Below, one piece after another: positions 8,100-25,801 of a DNA stretch of 25,801 nucleotides. Positions within the stretch are counted from its first letter, which is position 1; each line of letters begins with the position of its first letter. Under the pieces are notes generated by a model. It made no database searches, was not told the DNA's origin, and saw only the letters and a list, made by a program, of their open reading frames with translations. The DNA is from a virus (lineage: Duplodnaviria; Heunggongvirae; Uroviricota; Caudoviricetes). The position numbers and the translations under genes are program-made. The stretch is from the IMG/VR virus record IMGVR_UViG_2693429554_000019; one strand, written 5' to 3'.

Positions 8100-8418
8100 A
8101 GAATTTATTCTGATGGAGGTTAGTTTGGACAACGAGTGAAATAAGGTGGGCGGTCATTTTGATAAATGATCGTCCGCTTTGTGCCAGATATAGTCATTCG
8201 AACCCTGAGAGTTACACTTTTAAGTGATTCAGGGTATGCGCTTACTGGTTACGAATATTGTGCCAGAATCATGTGATTTGATGATTGCCGCTTTGCTTTC
8301 GAGCCAGTAAGTGCTCCACGTTCGCTAACGAATACTCAGGGCATGCAGAAAACTGCTGACTATATTTCTTTCGAAGAACGTGGAATGCATACCAATCCCC
8401 GATAAAAAGGAGTTGGTG
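8100..8418 (+). ncRNA. Candidate IS110-type non-coding (bridge-like) RNA in the left end
   Basis: About 320 nt non-coding region directly 5' of the transposase. Imperfect inverted repeat TCCACGTTCG (8315-8324) / CGAAGAACGTGGA (8372-8384). Hypothesis only. Confidence 0.2.
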
Positions 8419-19184: not shown

Positions 19185-19387
19185 TGAAAGTGCGTGCGCA
19201 TCAGTATGACACGGTGGACGCGCTTTGCTGGCGTCATTACGGGCGCACGCAGGGTGTCACGGAGCAGGTACTGAAGGCAAATCCGGGGCTTGCCGAATAT
19301 GGCCCCTTTTTACCTCACGGGCTGCAGGTGGAGCTGCCGGACATTCCGACCACCACCACCGTGCAGACCGTCCAGCTATGGGACTGA
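19184..19387 (+). CDS. X: Tail protein X (P2 gpX-like)
   Basis: 67 aa, the same length as P2 X; sits between L and the lysis genes. Confidence 0.8.
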   Translation: MKVRAHQYDTVDALCWRHYGRTQGVTEQVLKANPGLAEYGPFLPHGLQVELPDIPTTTTVQTVQLWD

Positions 19388-19390
19388 ATT

Positions 19391-19606
19391 ATGACGCTTG
19401 AGCGAATCAGCGCCTTTATCACGTACTGCATCGCCGTTGTGCTGGCCTGGCTGGGCGATTTGTCCATCAAGGATGCCTCAACGCTGGGCGGCCTGATGAT
19501 TGGTGTGCTGATGCTGGCTATCAACTGGTACTACAAACACAAAGCCTACCAGCTTCTGCGCGACGGGCAGATCTCGCGGGAGGACTATGAATCCATCAAT
19601 CGTTAA
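19391..19606 (+). CDS. Holin, small two-TMD type (pinholin-like)
   Basis: 71 aa with two hydrophobic segments (ISAFITYCIAVVLAWLGDL and LGGLMIGVLMLAINWYY) and a charged C-terminus. Directly upstream of, and overlapping, the endolysin gene. Confidence 0.75.
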   Translation: MTLERISAFITYCIAVVLAWLGDLSIKDASTLGGLMIGVLMLAINWYYKHKAYQLLRDGQISREDYESINR

Positions 19607-20099
19607 ACGCTGCCTTGTCGGGGCCGTGCTGGCTATTGCTGCCACGCTGCCGGGGTTTCAGCAGCTTCACACCTCCGTGGAGGGGCTGAAACTGATTGCC
19701 GATTACGAAGGCTGTCGTCTGCAGCCGTATCAGTGCAGCGCGGGCGTCTGGACCGACGGCATTGGTAACACGTCAGGCGTCATTCCCGGCAAAACCATTA
19801 CGGAACGACAGGCAGCAGAAGGACTGATTTCCAACGTGCTGCGTGTGGAGCGAGCGCTGGAAAGGTGTGTGAAACAACAGCCGCCGCAGAAGGTATATGA
19901 CGCTGCGGTGTCGTTTGCCTTCAACGTGGGAACGGGCAATGCCTGCAGTTCCACGCTGGTGAAATTACTCAATCAGCGGCGCTGGGCGGATGCGTGCCGA
20001 CAGTTGCCGCGCTGGGTTTATGTGAAAGGTGTGTTTAATCAGGGGCTGGATAACCGCCGTGCGCGGGAGATGGCCTGGTGTTTACAGGGAGCAAACTGA
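19587..20099 (+). CDS. SAR endolysin (T4-lysozyme fold, P1 Lyz type with regulatory cysteines)
   Basis: N-terminal signal-anchor-release-like segment VKRCLVGAVLAIAATLPG. Catalytic region YEGCRLQPYQCSAGVWTDGIGNT closely parallels P1 Lyz (EGCRRDPYMCPAGVWTDGIGNT), including Cys at E+2 and E+9 plus a Cys in the SAR segment. GGAGG upstream of the ATG. Confidence 0.85.
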   Translation: MNPSIVKRCLVGAVLAIAATLPGFQQLHTSVEGLKLIADYEGCRLQPYQCSAGVWTDGIGNTSGVIPGKTITERQAAEGLISNVLRVERALERCVKQQPPQKVYDAAVSFAFNVGTGNACSSTLVKLLNQRRWADACRQLPRWVYVKGVFNQGLDNRRAREMAWCLQGAN

Positions 20100-20100
20100 A

Positions 20101-20478
20101 ATGAAAAAGAAATTAATCAGCGGGCTGTTTCTGATGTTATGGATGGCGCTGTTAATCGCAGCAATGGTGTATCCGCAGGGGATTTTTCCGGTACTGGCAG
20201 CGTCCGGCGTTTGGGTAGCCTGTTTACTGACATGGGCGGTAATTCCGGTAGCACTGGCTGCGTTAATTAAGAATGGCCCGCTCTGGCAGGAGTTGAGGGC
20301 ATCTTTGCTGAAGACCATTACCCGAAAAGAAAACGTATTTATCAGCTGGGTGATGCGATTGCTGATTGTCGTAAGTCTCGCCTGGACGGGGTGGGCTATT
20401 ACCCTGGTCTTTTATCTACTGACCGTTATTGCCTTCTGGATCACCCGTAATCAGATGGCGCAACAGGTAGCAGCATGA
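20101..20478 (+). CDS. lysA: LysA-like membrane protein (lysis timing)
   Basis: ATG at 20101 after GGGAG. About 125 aa with four hydrophobic segments. Position after the endolysin as in P2. Confidence 0.7.
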   Translation: MKKKLISGLFLMLWMALLIAAMVYPQGIFPVLAASGVWVACLLTWAVIPVALAALIKNGPLWQELRASLLKTITRKENVFISWVMRLLIVVSLAWTGWAITLVFYLLTVIAFWITRNQMAQQVAA

Positions 20479-20903
20479 ACCGGTTGCTGCTGGTTATGCT
20501 GGCGTTATTACTGGCGGCGCTGGGCTGGCAGACGTGGCGGCTGGCTGATGCCAGCCAGACCATCAGCACGCAGGCAGACGAGCTGCAGAGCAAAAGCCAG
20601 GCACTGGCAAAGAGCAACAGCCAGCTTATCAGCCTGTCCATTCTGACTGAAACCAATAACCGGGAGCAGGCGCGGCTCTATGCCGAAGCAGAACAGACCA
20701 GCGCGCTGCTGAGACAACGACAACACCGGATAGAGGAACTGAAACGTGAGAACGAGGATTTACGCCGCTGGGCTGATACTCCTTTGCCTGCTGACATTAT
20801 CCGGCTGCGGGAACGTCCGACGCTCACCGGAGGTGCAGCTTACCGTCAGTGGTTGTCCGCGAGTGACGCCGTGTCGGCTGGATCAGGCAGCGCCGCGCAC
20901 TAA
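20475..20903 (+). CDS. lysB: LysB / Rz-like inner-membrane spanin (i-spanin)
   Basis: N-terminal TMD MNRLLLVMLALLLAALGW followed by a Gln/Glu/Arg-rich coiled-coil-like region. ATGA overlap with LysA. Confidence 0.75.
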   Translation: MNRLLLVMLALLLAALGWQTWRLADASQTISTQADELQSKSQALAKSNSQLISLSILTETNNREQARLYAEAEQTSALLRQRQHRIEELKRENEDLRRWADTPLPADIIRLRERPTLTGGAAYRQWLSASDAVSAGSGSAAH

Positions 20904-21036
20904 CGGTGATCTGAACGCGTTGCTGGATGAAACGGAGGCCGCCTGGGCGGTCTGTGCAGACAAAGTGGACATGATTATTGCGTGTCAGGAGCGAAACAGT
21001 GAACAAACCACAATCCCTGCGCCACGCCCTCAATAA
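20746..21036 (+). CDS. lysC: LysC / Rz1-like outer-membrane lipoprotein spanin (o-spanin), overlapping the 3' end of lysB
   Basis: GTG start at 20746 with GAGG upstream. Lipobox LTLSGC after a hydrophobic signal. Begins inside lysB in a different frame and extends past its stop. Confidence 0.65.
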   Translation: MRTRIYAAGLILLCLLTLSGCGNVRRSPEVQLTVSGCPRVTPCRLDQAAPRTNGDLNALLDETEAAWAVCADKVDMIIACQERNSEQTTIPAPRPQ

Positions 21037-24365: not shown

Positions 24366-25801
24366 GCACAAAATTTTATACCCTGCTGACGGATATTGGC
24401 GCGGCGAAACTTGCCAGCGCCGCCGCGCTCGGTGTGCCGTTAAAAATTACCCATATGGCGGTAGGCGATGGCGGCGGAACATTACCAACGCCGGACGCAA
24501 AGCAGACTGCACTGGTAAATGAGAAACGCCGGGCTGCGCTGAATATGCTCTATATCGACCCGCAAAACAGCAGCCAGATTATTGCTGAACAGGTGATCCC
24601 TGAAAACGAGGGCGGTTGGTGGATACGTGAAGTGGGCCTGTTTGATGAATCCGGGGCATTGATTGCCGTGGGCAACTGCCCGGAAAGCTATAAGCCGCAA
24701 CTGGCTGAAGGCAGCGGGCGCACCCAGACCGTGCGCATGGTGCTGATTACCAGCAGCACGGACAATATCACCCTGAAAATCGACCCTGCCGTCGTGCTGG
24801 CAACCCGCAAGTATGTGGATGATAAGGTACTGGAGCTGAAGGTGTACGTGGATGATCAGATGGCAAAACATCTTGCAGCACCGGACCCGCATTCACAGTA
24901 TGCACCCAAAGAAAGTCCTATGTTTACCGGGACACCCAAAGCGCCAACGCCAGCGGCGGGGAATAACACCACGCAGGTTGCGACCACCGCGTTTGTTCAG
25001 GTGGCACTGACGGCTCTTATTAATGGTGCGCCAGCCACGCTGGACACGCTGAAAGAAATTGCCGCAGCCATAAACAATGACCCGAAATTCAGTACCACCA
25101 TTAACAATGCGCTGGCACTGAAAGCGCCGCTGTTAAGTCCGGCACTCACCGGAACGCCAACAGCCCCCACTGCCGCACAGTCGGTTAACAATACACAGAT
25201 TGCCACCACGGCTTTTGTGAAATCGGCAATTGCGGCAATGGTGGGGTCTGCACCTGCTGCACTGGATACACTGAACGAACTGGCTGCGGCGCTGGGGAAT
25301 GACCCGAACTTTGCCACGACAATGCTTAATGCGCTGGCAGGTAAACAACCGCTGGACAATACGCTGACTAATTTGAGTGGAAAGGATGTAGCTGGTCTTC
25401 TCGCATACCTTGGTTTGGGAGAGGGCTCTGCATTACCGGTTGGGGTGCCTGTTCCGTGGCCTTCAGCCACTCCGCCAACAGGCTGGCTGAAATGCAACGG
25501 TGCCGCTTTTTCTGCTGAAGAATACCCGGAACTGGCAAAGGCTTATCCGACAAATAAATTGCCTGATTTACGCGGTGAGTTTATTAGGGGCTGGGATGAC
25601 GGGCGTGGTATTGATGCTGTACGTGCCTTGCTAAGTCTTCAGAATGGAGGAGTGGAATCACACACCCACCAAGGGCAGCTCTTCAGAGTCAGTGATTATC
25701 GTACAAAAGAAATACCAGCATCAGAAGTTATGGGAAGAGGATATATTGCAAGCCTGACGCCGGGTGCTGATAGCCCACTTGATTTTGATGATTATTCTGT
25801 A
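24362..25801 (+). CDS. H: Tail fibre protein H, 5' partial (runs off the window end)
   Basis: Hand-translated from ATG 24362: open for all 480 codons to base 25801 (missing from the track because no stop is reached). N-terminus MSTKFYTLLTDIGAAKLASAAALGVPLKITHMAVGDGGG parallels P2 gpH. Two tandem ~55-aa repeats and a tail-collar-like segment (WLKCNGAAFSAEEYPELAKAYP...LPDLRGEFIRGWDDGRG). Confidence 0.85.
   Translation, partial: MSTKFYTLLTDIGAAKLASAAALGVPLKITHMAVGDGGGTLPTPDAKQTALVNEKRRAALNMLYIDPQNSSQIIAEQVIPENEGGWWIREVGLFDESGALIAVGNCPESYKPQLAEGSGRTQTVRMVLITSSTDNITLKIDPAVVLATRKYVDDKVLELKVYVDDQMAKHLAAPDPHSQYAPKESPMFTGTPKAPTPAAGNNTTQVATTAFVQVALTALINGAPATLDTLKEIAAAINNDPKFSTTINNALALKAPLLSPALTGTPTAPTAAQSVNNTQIATTAFVKSAIAAMVGSAPAALDTLNELAAALGNDPNFATTMLNALAGKQPLDNTLTNLSGKDVAGLLAYLGLGEGSALPVGVPVPWPSATPPTGWLKCNGAAFSAEEYPELAKAYPTNKLPDLRGEFIRGWDDGRGIDAVRALLSLQNGGVESHTHQGQLFRVSDYRTKEIPASEVMGRGYIASLTPGADSPLDFDDYSV

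Follow-up and report, generated by a model that had tools for sequence, protein, structure and literature searches.

A predicted class II holin of the HP1 type and a P1 Lyz-type SAR endolysin probably replace Y and K in a P2-like lysis cassette

Lyz of phage P1 is a signal-anchor-release (SAR) endolysin of family GH24 with a catalytic cysteine in place of aspartate, a cysteine two residues after the catalytic glutamate (E+2), a further cysteine in the SAR segment and seven cysteines in all, and its structures and mechanism were reportedly described by Xu et al. (2004 in PNAS and 2005 in Science). Lyz103 of Erwinia phage Era103, for which Kuty et al. (2010) are said to have described disulfide caging, is also a GH24 SAR endolysin with a cysteine in the SAR segment and another at E+2, but it has cysteines on both sides of the glutamate, at E-1 and E+2 (C-E-G-C), and its catalytic residue at E+9 is an aspartate. 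Phage 21, represented here by EssD and RrrD of DLP12, encodes a GH24 SAR endolysin (R21) with an aspartate at E+9 and no regulatory cysteines, together with a 71-aa holin (S21) that has two transmembrane domains (TMDs) and a dual start and whose TMD1, rich in Gly, Ala and Ser, exits from the membrane; the founding member of this holin family, P21 S, was tested experimentally and reported as a pinholin. In Haemophilus phage HP1, which is P2-like (Peduoviridae), the gene of a holin without a dual start (Hol) precedes and overlaps that of a P1-type endolysin (Lys) with a SAR cysteine and an EGC...C motif, and Hol has been reported as a pinholin on experimental evidence and as the partner of this SAR endolysin (PMC7312051). 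P2 itself encodes Y, a 93-aa holin of family PF04550, and K, which has neither a match to PF00959 nor an N-terminal TMD.

Near-identical phages have already been annotated and published with the arrangement analyzed here. At 97-98% nucleotide identity, the cassette recurs in Klebsiella phage KP12 (peg.316-320), in Escherichia phage vB_EcoM-813R9, in 500465-1 and Klebsiella phage 4LV2017, and in E. coli prophages; for Cartapus, the match is to the holin only, which is 100% identical. KP12 (97% nucleotide identity) and its kin show no essential difference, and KP12.peg.319 has been published as a P1 Lyz-like SAR endolysin; that paper does not discuss the cysteines and favors peg.280, not the adjacent peg.320, as the pinholin (PMC9902359). 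Little new biology can be claimed: experiments have already addressed how P1 Lyz works, pinholins and the HP1 pair.

The window, i.e. the whole stretch of 25,801 nucleotides that was analyzed, contains both lysis ORFs on the plus strand where the initial annotation had placed them (Table 1). The endolysin matches PF00959 with 137.3 bits (cut-off 22.3, E 4.6e-40) and the holin matches PF16080, the HP1 holin family, with 36.7 bits (cut-off 28.8, E 4.3e-9); because both scores lie above the curated cut-offs, the two ORFs are, judged by these profiles, real genes and not chance occurrences. The 3' end of the holin gene and the start of the endolysin gene share a 20-nt overlap, and the gene order gpL, gpX, hol, lys, lysA-like, lysB, lysC identifies the locus as the lysis cassette of a P2-like (Peduoviridae) prophage. 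No defense genes were detected among the cargo ORFs with PADLOC or Pfam.

Table 1. Positions of the lysis genes and of sequence elements within them
Feature	Position	Strand	Description
Holin, 71 aa	19391..19606	+	Class II, two predicted TMDs, single start codon, candidate pinholin
Shine-Dalgarno-like GGGAGG	19578..19583	+	Read from the sequence; 3 nt before the endolysin ATG, within the holin 3' end
Endolysin, 170 aa	19587..20099	+	Predicted GH24 T4-lysozyme-like muramidase, P1 Lyz type, SAR
SAR segment C9-F24	19611..19658	+	16 uncharged residues after K7-R8
C9 codon	19611-19613		
Catalytic region E41-G-C43-x6-C50-x5-T56	19707..19754	+	Aligned with P1 Lyz and HP1 Lys
E41 codon	19707-19709		
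C43 codon	19713-19715		E+2
C50 codon	19734-19736		E+9
T56 codon	19752-19754		
LysA-position membrane protein, 125 aa	20101..20478	+	3-4 hydrophobic segments
LysB, Rz-like inner-membrane spanin, 142 aa	20475..20903	+	TIGR03495 phage_LysB 2e-51; phrog_89
LysC, Rz1-like outer-membrane lipoprotein spanin, 96 aa	20746..21036	+	GTG start, lipobox LSGC

The genes downstream of the pair tie the locus to P2. LysB and LysC are 33% and 42% identical to their P2 counterparts, lysC overlaps lysB, and LysC matches PF23793 (LysC, 2e-15) and NF038368 (P2_Rz1, 1.5e-36). The protein in the LysA position matches phrog_162 (8e-44) and NCBIfam NF038378 (5e-36), shows three hydrophobic segments in a 19-residue hydropathy scan and has only marginal similarity to P2 LysA (E 0.028); it may be a regulator of lysis timing. 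In P2, Y and K occupy the same slot, between gpX and lysA/lysB/lysC, but neither is significantly similar to the holin/endolysin pair, which points to non-orthologous replacement and bears out the view of the initial annotation that the strategy differs from that of Y and K. The preferred reading is that the Y/K pair of a P2-like cassette has been replaced by an HP1-type class II holin and a P1 Lyz-type SAR endolysin, which, on the basis of sequence comparison, is assigned a probability of about three in four. The compact hol-lys-lysA-lysB-lysC cassette differs from the lysis genes of P1, where holin, pinholin and spanin genes are scattered, and from those of HP1, which has the same hol-lys order and overlap but no LysA-like gene and no recognized LysC. 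The possibility that the muramidase is a virion-associated lysozyme was ruled out by the position of its gene between the holin and the spanins.

The closest solved relative of the endolysin is P1 Lyz (1xjt, E 2e-26), and the two share all the features of P1 Lyz named above. The motif EGCRLQPYQC, with cysteines at E+2 (C43) and E+9 (C50), is present verbatim as initially annotated; it aligns column for column with EGCRRDPYMC of P1 Lyz, so that E41, C43, C50 and T56 fall on E42, C44, C51 and T57, and this agreement argues for homology, not coincidence, of the cysteine arrangement. C50 presumably occupies the position of Asp20 of T4 lysozyme. The catalytic triad E-8aa-D/C-5aa-T, a motif defined in PMC4640515, is present as E41, C50 and T56, equivalent to E35, D44 and T50 of RrrD. 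The endolysin shares 37% identity with both P1 Lyz and RrrD/R21 and 34% with HP1 Lys, and a seven-way alignment, which included P1 Lyz and, as P21 R, RrrD, groups it with the P1/HP1 type and with neither the R21 type nor the Lyz103 type; the Lyz103 pattern is absent, E-1 being a tyrosine (Y40) and E+9 a cysteine instead of aspartate. There are also differences from P1 Lyz: the SAR segment has only 16 uncharged residues instead of about 20, the 11-residue insertion that follows FNVG in P1 Lyz is missing, and C94 and C120 are offset from P1 C91 and C118, while C137 and C165 correspond to P1 C150 and C178.

An AlphaFold (AF2) model of the endolysin (pLDDT 93.7, pTM 0.88) is in line with this assignment. 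Its best Foldseek matches, 1XJT, 4ZPU and 3HDE, have the lysozyme fold (TM 0.79-0.86), and it is closer to the active form of P1 Lyz (1XJT, TM 0.86 over 173 alignment columns) than to the inactive form (1XJU, TM 0.58). The assignment of the protein as a P1 Lyz-type SAR endolysin, though predicted, is therefore well supported.

The initial annotation had placed a 71-aa holin with two TMDs upstream of the endolysin, and hydropathy indeed predicts TMDs at about residues 6-22 and 29-48 of this ORF, followed by a basic juxtamembrane C-terminus (K49-H-K51). In addition to PF16080, which HP1 Hol itself matches with 84.6 bits, the holin matches phrog_20 (1.9e-26), whereas its score against PF04971, the P21 S family, remains below the cut-off (23.2 versus 26 bits). 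Two relatives, Ep4 and C171, lie above the cut-offs of both Pfam families and thus bridge the HP1 and the P21 holins. Within the holin family, G34xxxG38 and N45-W-Y-Y-K are conserved, and the TMD2 motif G..L....N.Y[YF]K is common to the holin and the S21-like EssD, which is also 71 aa long. Direct comparisons with characterized pinholins are weak: the holin is 21% identical to HP1 Hol (BLASTP E 3.9), and hhalign with the holin family gave probabilities of 27% for EssD, for TMD2 only, and 9% for HP1 Hol. The homology to these pinholins is thus carried by the Pfam profiles and the bridging sequences, from which the protein is predicted to be a class II holin of the HP1/P21 superfamily.

Whether this holin forms pinholes is the weakest part of the reading, because its TMD1 is not SAR-like. 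Expressed as a simple Hessa-scale sum over 17 residues, which is a proxy for membrane behavior only, TMD1 has a value of -0.6, compared with +6.5 for EssD, +3.9 for the weakly hydrophobic TMD1 of HP1 Hol, +4.4 for Ep4 and +5.6 for C171. Gly, Ala, Ser and Thr make up 35% of TMD1 (65% in EssD), and TMD1 is more hydrophobic than TMD2, the opposite of known pinholins. A dual-start motif was sought in the holin and not found; there is a single Met, and the ATG that precedes it at 19378 lies in another frame and runs into a stop. The holin therefore lacks a PF04971 score above the cut-off, a TMD1 that is SAR-like by hydropathy and a dual start, i.e. the features of an S21-type pinholin.

This combination of a strongly hydrophobic TMD1, a single start and weak resemblance to HP1 Hol and S21, pairwise as well as by profile, is what would be expected if the endolysin were as described above, but the holin were a canonical large-hole class II holin, as LydA is alongside Lyz in P1. 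Both types of holin can serve a SAR endolysin, and P1 LydA is of the canonical type (PMC9025707, PMC6116005); a large-hole holin retains a considerable chance of being correct, albeit clearly short of even. It is opposed by the experimental report that the founder of PF16080 is a pinholin, by the continuity of this family with P21 S, by the size and layout of the protein, since 71 aa and two TMDs are those of known pinholins, and by the genomic context of its relatives. Six holin relatives (28-37% identity), found with tblastn against annotated phages in the Peduoviridae, a lambdoid-like Yersinia phage and the Autographiviridae, all adjoin endolysins whose N-termini are SAR-like, either of P1 or of R21 type, and none of these distant relatives is next to a soluble one. 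A search of IMG/VR with the holin alignment returned 80 loci, all 100% identical to the query, which offered no diversity for a test of co-occurrence; it matched the window itself to IMGVR_UViG_2693429677_000020.

That the holin is a pinholin, or a pinholin-like small-hole class II holin, is judged slightly better than an even bet. The pinholin partner suggested by the initial annotation is reasonable in view of PF16080 and the SAR-endolysin neighbors, TMD1 being the weak point. The activation of the holin probably does not copy that of S21, since TMD1 is a robust hydrophobic helix. In the enterobacterial P2-like branch this TMD1 is very highly conserved (MTLERISAFITYCIA). A hydrophobic and conserved TMD1, the lack of a dual start and the presence of a conserved multi-TMD protein in the LysA position after lys led to the tentative and rather unlikely proposal that the holin of this branch works differently from S21: it would form holes, whether pinholes or larger ones, as a stable protein with two TMDs and would be timed by the LysA-like protein as an antiholin or co-holin. 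If true, three membrane proteins would together control a P1-type SAR endolysin; to our knowledge, such a circuit has not yet been described for any model phage.

The N-terminus of the endolysin agrees with the initial annotation of a SAR-like segment that contains a cysteine, and the peptide quoted there, VKRCLVGAVLAIAATLPG, is found verbatim: K7-R8 is directly followed by the uncharged run C9-F24, of which C9 is the first residue. Gly, Ala, Ser and Thr account for 44% of this segment, compared with 55% in P1 Lyz. A reading of C9 as the cysteine of a lipoprotein was rejected, since neither a hydrophobic region nor a lipobox lies before it.

The mechanism proposed for the pair is modeled on P1 Lyz, HP1 and phage 21, to which the endolysin is 34-37% identical. 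The disulfide connectivity of P1 Lyz is taken as reportedly established, and the titles of the PDB entries (1XJT active, 1XJU inactive) agree with it. By analogy, the endolysin would be exported by Sec without cleavage and would be tethered to the inner membrane via the weakly hydrophobic segment C9-F24; in this state, C9 would lie unavailable where the bilayer borders on the cytoplasm, and the catalytic C50 would be locked in a disulfide with C43, rendering the enzyme inactive, while C94-C120 and C137-C165 are probably structural disulfides formed in the periplasm. At the programmed time, the holin would depolarize the membrane, the SAR segment would exit from the bilayer and refold on the enzyme body, and C9, the proposed isomerizing thiol, would attack the C43-C50 bond, so that C9-C43 is formed, C50 is freed and the active muramidase could degrade the murein. 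LysB and LysC would then disrupt the outer membrane. The holin would need only to collapse the membrane potential.

It should be noted that SAR endolysins can also operate without such a switch. As the alignment with RrrD illustrates, R21-type enzymes run the SAR mechanism without cysteines, and if the present endolysin were likewise controlled by topology and refolding only, its cysteines would be structural or catalytic leftovers and no disulfide isomerization would occur. The E+2/E+9 cysteine pair alone is indeed not diagnostic of redox control, because among the best 150 homologs it is also present in 26 soluble proteins without any TMD, and in the cytoplasm no disulfide switch can operate. 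Moreover, C9 is not aligned with C13 of P1 Lyz, which lies nine residues past K4. Nevertheless, control as in R21 is quite unlikely in view of the association of the cysteines with each other and with export. An N-proximal SAR cysteine is kept in 16 of the 17 distant exported homologs with the E+2/E+9 pair among the best 150, and in neither of the two SAR homologs that lack both pair cysteines; this control is tiny, with three SAR proteins without the pair among the best 150, and the Fisher test gave p = 0.046. None of 23 close relatives lacks C9, and a cysteine is found in the column aligned with it in 12 of 13 distant ones. Finally, subtraction of two co-varying pairs from the seven cysteines leaves a three-cysteine switch, exactly as in P1 Lyz.

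Conservation extends to the other cysteines. Each of the seven is kept in 22-23 of the 23 close homologs, and all seven are kept in the commonest protein variants, which were derived from 79 IMG/VR loci with a conserved lys start. C137 and C165 behave as a unit (both present in 20 homologs, neither in 83, mixed in 5), are invariant in P1, HP1, Era103 and RrrD, and are present in 12 of 13 exported (SAR) homologs and in none of 17 soluble ones. The pair can thus be regarded as a signature of a periplasmic enzyme, which supports a predicted exported location of the endolysin.

The export signal itself could in principle be a Sec signal peptide that is cleaved off, yielding a soluble secreted enzyme that is restrained in another way, like Lys44 of fOg44. 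The hydrophobic run is short (16 residues), follows basic residues and contains an AXA-like motif (A16-I17-A18), and SignalP called the homologous N-terminus of HP1 Lys a signal peptide (PMC7312051). However, the AXA motif sits midway through the run and not after it, A-I-A also occurs in the SAR segment of P1 Lyz (A14-I15-A16), and relatives conserve no pair of small residues at -3/-1 beyond P22, having G, Q, D or N at position 23. Signal peptidase leaves the N-terminal signals of P1 Lyz and R21 in place (PMC6116005), and a conserved cysteine in the segment makes sense only if the segment is kept in the mature protein. In the AF2 model, residues 11-26 are helical and packed on the enzyme body with pLDDT 94-96, as in active P1 Lyz; such confident packing, although a property of a model, counts against a signal peptide, since a cleaved peptide would not be expected in the packed fold. 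Cleavage is therefore regarded as highly improbable. Translation from the GTG of V14 (19626), which would yield a 157-aa enzyme that has neither C9 nor a complete SAR segment and which has been annotated for a homolog in ON470620 and in a 157-aa database entry (P0099), is scarcely credible given the Shine-Dalgarno-like GGGAGG 3 nt before the ATG at 19587, the conservation of the first 13 residues, especially IVKRC, in EtG, YenM_06.16-2, ENT90 and P0133 (56-63% identical), and the long form carried by RefSeq/PGAP entries.

A programmed frameshift that would fuse Lys to LysA was also considered and rejected: the 296-aa fusion forms are due to genomic 1-nt deletions at several different positions, and none occurs among the 79 IMG/VR loci.

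The main use of the analysis lies in annotation. Many records of this cassette say just "lysozyme", some start the protein at V14 and thereby lose the SAR segment, and in several the name "endolysin" is given to the LysA-like membrane protein. Being very common, the prophage offers a convenient E. coli-native system in which to ask whether a holin with a hydrophobic TMD1 forms pinholes and what role the LysA-position protein plays. The cassette is also present in many prophages of Klebsiella, Salmonella and Citrobacter, and the hol/lys pair, annotated as "lysozyme" and "HP1 family phage holin", was found in about one in five complete E. coli genomes (1032 of 5426).

The locus belongs to a P2-like (Peduoviridae) prophage and is its lysis cassette, because hol-lys is flanked by gpL and gpX on one side and by a LysA-position gene, LysB and LysC on the other, and because gpA, the Q/P/O/N/M head genes, an integrase, a Dam methylase and a CI-type repressor are encoded elsewhere in the window. 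The window corresponds to IMG/VR contig UViG_2693429677_000020. Both reading frames were recovered at 19391-20099, and the peptides quoted in the initial annotation occur verbatim in the 170-aa ORF. The 5' end of lys shares 20 nt with the 3' end of hol, and a Shine-Dalgarno-like GGGAGG is located 3 nt 5' of the endolysin ATG.

Features of the lysis cassette and of two further regions
Feature	Position	Strand	Basis or placement
IS110-family transposase	8380-9657		PF01548 + PF02371; between gpA and Q/P genes
Three ORFs (154, 241, 269 aa)	9842-12203		after the transposase
gpL, gpX			5' of hol; profile matches
Holin ORF, 71 aa	19391-19606	+	ORF reading; PF16080; PHROGs agrees
Holin TMD1	19406-19456		hydropathy windows
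Holin TMD2	19475-19525		hydropathy windows
Endolysin ORF, 170 aa	19587-20099	+	PF00959 Phage_lysozyme 4.6e-40; PHROGs agrees
C94, C120 (endolysin)	19866-19868, 19944-19946		co-varying Cys pair
C137, C165 (endolysin)	19995-19997, 20079-20081		co-varying Cys pair
LysA-position membrane protein, 125 aa, several hydrophobic segments	20101-20478		3' of lys
LysB	20475-20903		3' of LysA-position gene
LysC	20746-21036		downstream of lys
Putative ORFs (136, 166 aa)	24482-24892, 24997-25497	-	past baseplate genes

The closest relative of solved structure is P1 Lyz (1xjt, E 2e-26), in which EGCRRDPYMC is the aligned counterpart of EGCRLQPYQC in the endolysin; in pairwise comparison, P1 Lyz and RrrD (the R21 homologue of DLP12) are each 37% identical to it, and HP1 Lys is 34% identical. 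The translation places the key residues at C9, E41, C43 (E+2), C50 (E+9) and T56. In a seven-way alignment, the last four match E42/C44/C51/T57 of P1 Lyz and the same residues of HP1 Lys, whereas RrrD has no Cys at E+2 and an Asp in the C50 column, and Era103 Lyz103 combines C-E-G-C with an Asp at E+9. This pattern places the protein in the P1 subtype of SAR endolysins, and in neither the Lyz103 (caging) nor the R21 subtype, in agreement with the P1 Lyz-type cysteines reported initially. Enzymes of this group are recognised by the triad E-8aa-D/C-5aa-T, their accepted signature (PMC4640515). It should be noted that the mechanistic steps would be carried over to the window endolysin from homologues at 34-37% identity.

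The holin matches PF16080 (HP1 holin family) with 36.7 bits (cut-off 28.8) and PF04971 (P21 holin S) with 23.2 bits, under the cut-off of 26. Two TMDs are predicted (about residues 6-22 and 29-48), with a short loop between them (D23-D28), and the juxtamembrane C-terminus is basic. Pairwise comparison with HP1 Hol revealed no detectable similarity (21% identity, E 3.9), and the match to the S21-like EssD was confined to TMD2 (45% over 20 residues; hhalign probability 27%). Family membership is indicated by the Pfam profile and by two intermediate sequences from Pseudomonas phages, the Ep4 and C171 holins; each exceeds the PF16080 as well as the PF04971 cut-off, which shows that the two families are continuous. 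The first 15 residues (MTLERISAFITYCIA) are almost invariant in 93 homologues. For the related holins of YenM_06.16-2 (Yersinia phage) and EtG (Erwinia phage), both at 1495-1716 of their records, the annotation includes a further Met upstream and in frame (MGLKMEK and MGLTMEK, respectively), possibly a dual-start or antiholin motif; the counterpart ATG of the window (19378; 19378-19393) is out of frame and part of the gpX end, so that hol has a single start codon.

The founders of these families are described as pinholins, S21 in a review (PMC6116005) and HP1 Hol in an experimental study together with its SAR endolysin (PMC7312051). Partners were compared for six holin relatives (28-37% identity), which represent three unrelated phage groups, namely YenM_06.16-2, EtG and ENT90 (Peduoviridae), the lambdoid-like Yersinia phage YenM_210.17, and Ep4 and C171 (Autographiviridae). 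All six adjoin endolysins with SAR-like N-termini, three of P1 type and three of R21 type, and the lack of a soluble partner would be the pattern expected of pinholins. We give the proposal that the window holin is a pinholin slightly better than even odds (about 0.55). Against these family ties, a canonical holin remains a credible, if less probable, reading, as canonical holins also serve SAR endolysins, P1 LydA being one (PMC9025707), and as TMD1 is the more hydrophobic helix in this holin subfamily, which argues against a simple copy of S21. The Hessa-scale sum over 17 residues is -0.6 for TMD1 and +1.9 for TMD2, the reverse of EssD, HP1 Hol, Ep4 and C171, in which TMD1 is by far the weaker helix (+3.9 to +6.5 versus -1.2 to +0.5 for TMD2). 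TMD1 externalisation is the defining step of S21 activation, and with the more hydrophobic TMD1 it appears doubtful here. The pinholin partner suggested initially is moderately supported, by PF16080 and the SAR-paired relatives, but its TMD1 is not the weak helix seen in EssD and HP1 Hol. With its hydrophobic TMD1 and single start, the holin may work differently from S21, and the conserved LysA-position membrane protein is a conceivable regulator of it.

The endolysin N-terminus comprises K7-R8 and 16 uncharged residues (C9-F24) with 44% Gly/Ala/Ser/Thr, compared with 55% over about 20 residues in P1 Lyz. In ON470620 (phage vB_EcoM-813R9; 3443-3916) the start is placed at the GTG of V14, yielding 157 aa, and a 157-aa database entry (the homologue P0099) also exists; such a start would skip 19587-19625, so that C9 and one half of the SAR would be lost, and it is unlikely because the IVKRC motif 5' of V14 is kept in proteins of only 56-63% identity. 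Removal of the segment as a cleaved signal peptide is highly improbable: the only AXA-like motif, A16-I17-A18, sits midway along the hydrophobic run and is found identically in the SAR of P1 Lyz, past the helix-breaking P22 no small -3/-1 pair is conserved (relatives have G, Q, D or N at position 23), and the conserved SAR Cys and the packing in the AlphaFold2 model also speak against cleavage. The P1 Lyz and R21 signals escape removal by signal peptidase (PMC6116005). In the model, built on an alignment of 54 sequences (pLDDT 93.7), residues 11-26 form two helices (pLDDT 94-96), and the top PDB match is active P1 Lyz 1XJT (TM 0.86 over 173 alignment columns), with a TM of only 0.58 for inactive 1XJU; the N-terminal segment is thus predicted to belong to the folded enzyme, as in released Lyz. 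Such confident modelling would not be expected of a disposable signal peptide, and the SAR-like segment with its Cys, as initially proposed, is upheld.

Like P1 Lyz, the endolysin contains seven Cys. All are kept in the commonest protein variants of 79 IMG/VR loci in which the start of lys is conserved, and each is present in 22-23 of 23 close homologues. The best 150 representatives of 50%-identity clusters were sorted by N-terminus type and Cys. With query copies excluded, 16 of 17 homologues with a SAR-like N-terminus and the E+2/E+9 pair have a Cys in the N-proximal hydrophobic segment, which looks well above an informal chance expectation for a TMD of 16-20 residues; the start of the sole exception may be truncated. 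The two SAR homologues that lack the E+2 as well as the E+9 Cys have no SAR Cys (Fisher p = 0.046, with a small comparison group). Its position is always within residues 1-7 of the hydrophobic run, but the alignment columns differ, C9 directly following K-R at the SAR start and P1 C13 lying nine residues past K4. Twenty-six homologues without any TMD (P0163, P0167, P0172, P0175 and others) carry Cys at E+2 and E+9, so the pair by itself does not diagnose redox control, and the third Cys, in the SAR, is the one that counts; the "P1 Lyz cysteine pair" is thus either older than, or independent of, the SAR-based switch. C137 and C165 are both present in 20 homologues, both absent from 83 and mixed in five; they occur in 12 of 13 distant exported homologues versus 0 of 17 soluble ones, are kept in P1, HP1, Era103 and RrrD in the seven-way alignment, and look like a marker of periplasmic GH24 endolysins. 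For C94/C120 the counts are 12 (both), 95 (neither) and four (one only). Two probable structural periplasmic disulfides plus a three-Cys switch give the Cys count expected under the P1 mechanism, and provide independent support for an exported enzyme.

P2 Y is a PF04550 member, P2 K has no match to PF00959, and neither resembles the window hol or lys, which bears out the claim that the strategy is not that of the canonical P2 Y and K. Homology to the P2 counterparts is clear for LysB and LysC (33% and 42% identity), and hol-lys is a non-orthologous replacement of Y/K in a conserved slot. A pair of this type is also found in the HP1 branch of that virus family.

Klebsiella phages KP12 and 4LV2017 as well as the Escherichia phages vB_EcoM-813R9 and 500465-1 match the 1.85-kb cassette at 97-98% identity, a separate protein search found a 100% identical holin in phage Cartapus, and 1032 of 5426 complete E. 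coli genomes carry the pair, annotated as "lysozyme" and "HP1 family phage holin". For KP12, the P1 Lyz SAR domain has been reported to be conserved in KP12.peg.319, and in the search for its pinholin partner, peg.280 of a T1-like cassette was proposed over peg.320, the HP1-family holin adjoining the SAR endolysin (PMC9902359). The announcement of the P2-like phage Midge lists a "class II holin, signal-arrest-release endolysin" (PMC12697156). Since these sources carry the same description, the reading as a P1-type SAR endolysin with a holin is real and correctly interpreted, but already known. The KP12 assembly seems to join T1-like and P2-like lysis cassettes (PMC9902359).

The IS110-family transposase and the three ORFs after it, which have no Pfam or PADLOC match, constitute the variable cargo region of P2-like phages; the two putative ORFs past the baseplate genes likewise lack Pfam or PADLOC matches. 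PHROG 162 and a number of RefSeq phage records, P2 lysA among them, name the LysA-position protein "endolysin", which looks like a propagated misannotation because the protein has no enzymatic domain. Among the 120 database entries listed, 37 are Lys-LysA fusions, mostly of 296 aa and some of 276-290 aa, and none was found among the 79 IMG/VR loci. They stem from the loss of 1 nt in the genome within the final ~12 codons of lys (20029-20099 region), at no fewer than five different junctions, most commonly with a G missing from CGGGAG, giving RRARRWPGVYREQTEMKKK; because the lysA frame is stop-free from 20029 onward, any such deletion fuses lys to the multi-TMD LysA-like protein. As the deletions are genomic and at several junctions, programmed frameshifting is probably not their source, and the fusions probably represent prophage decay or assembly errors.
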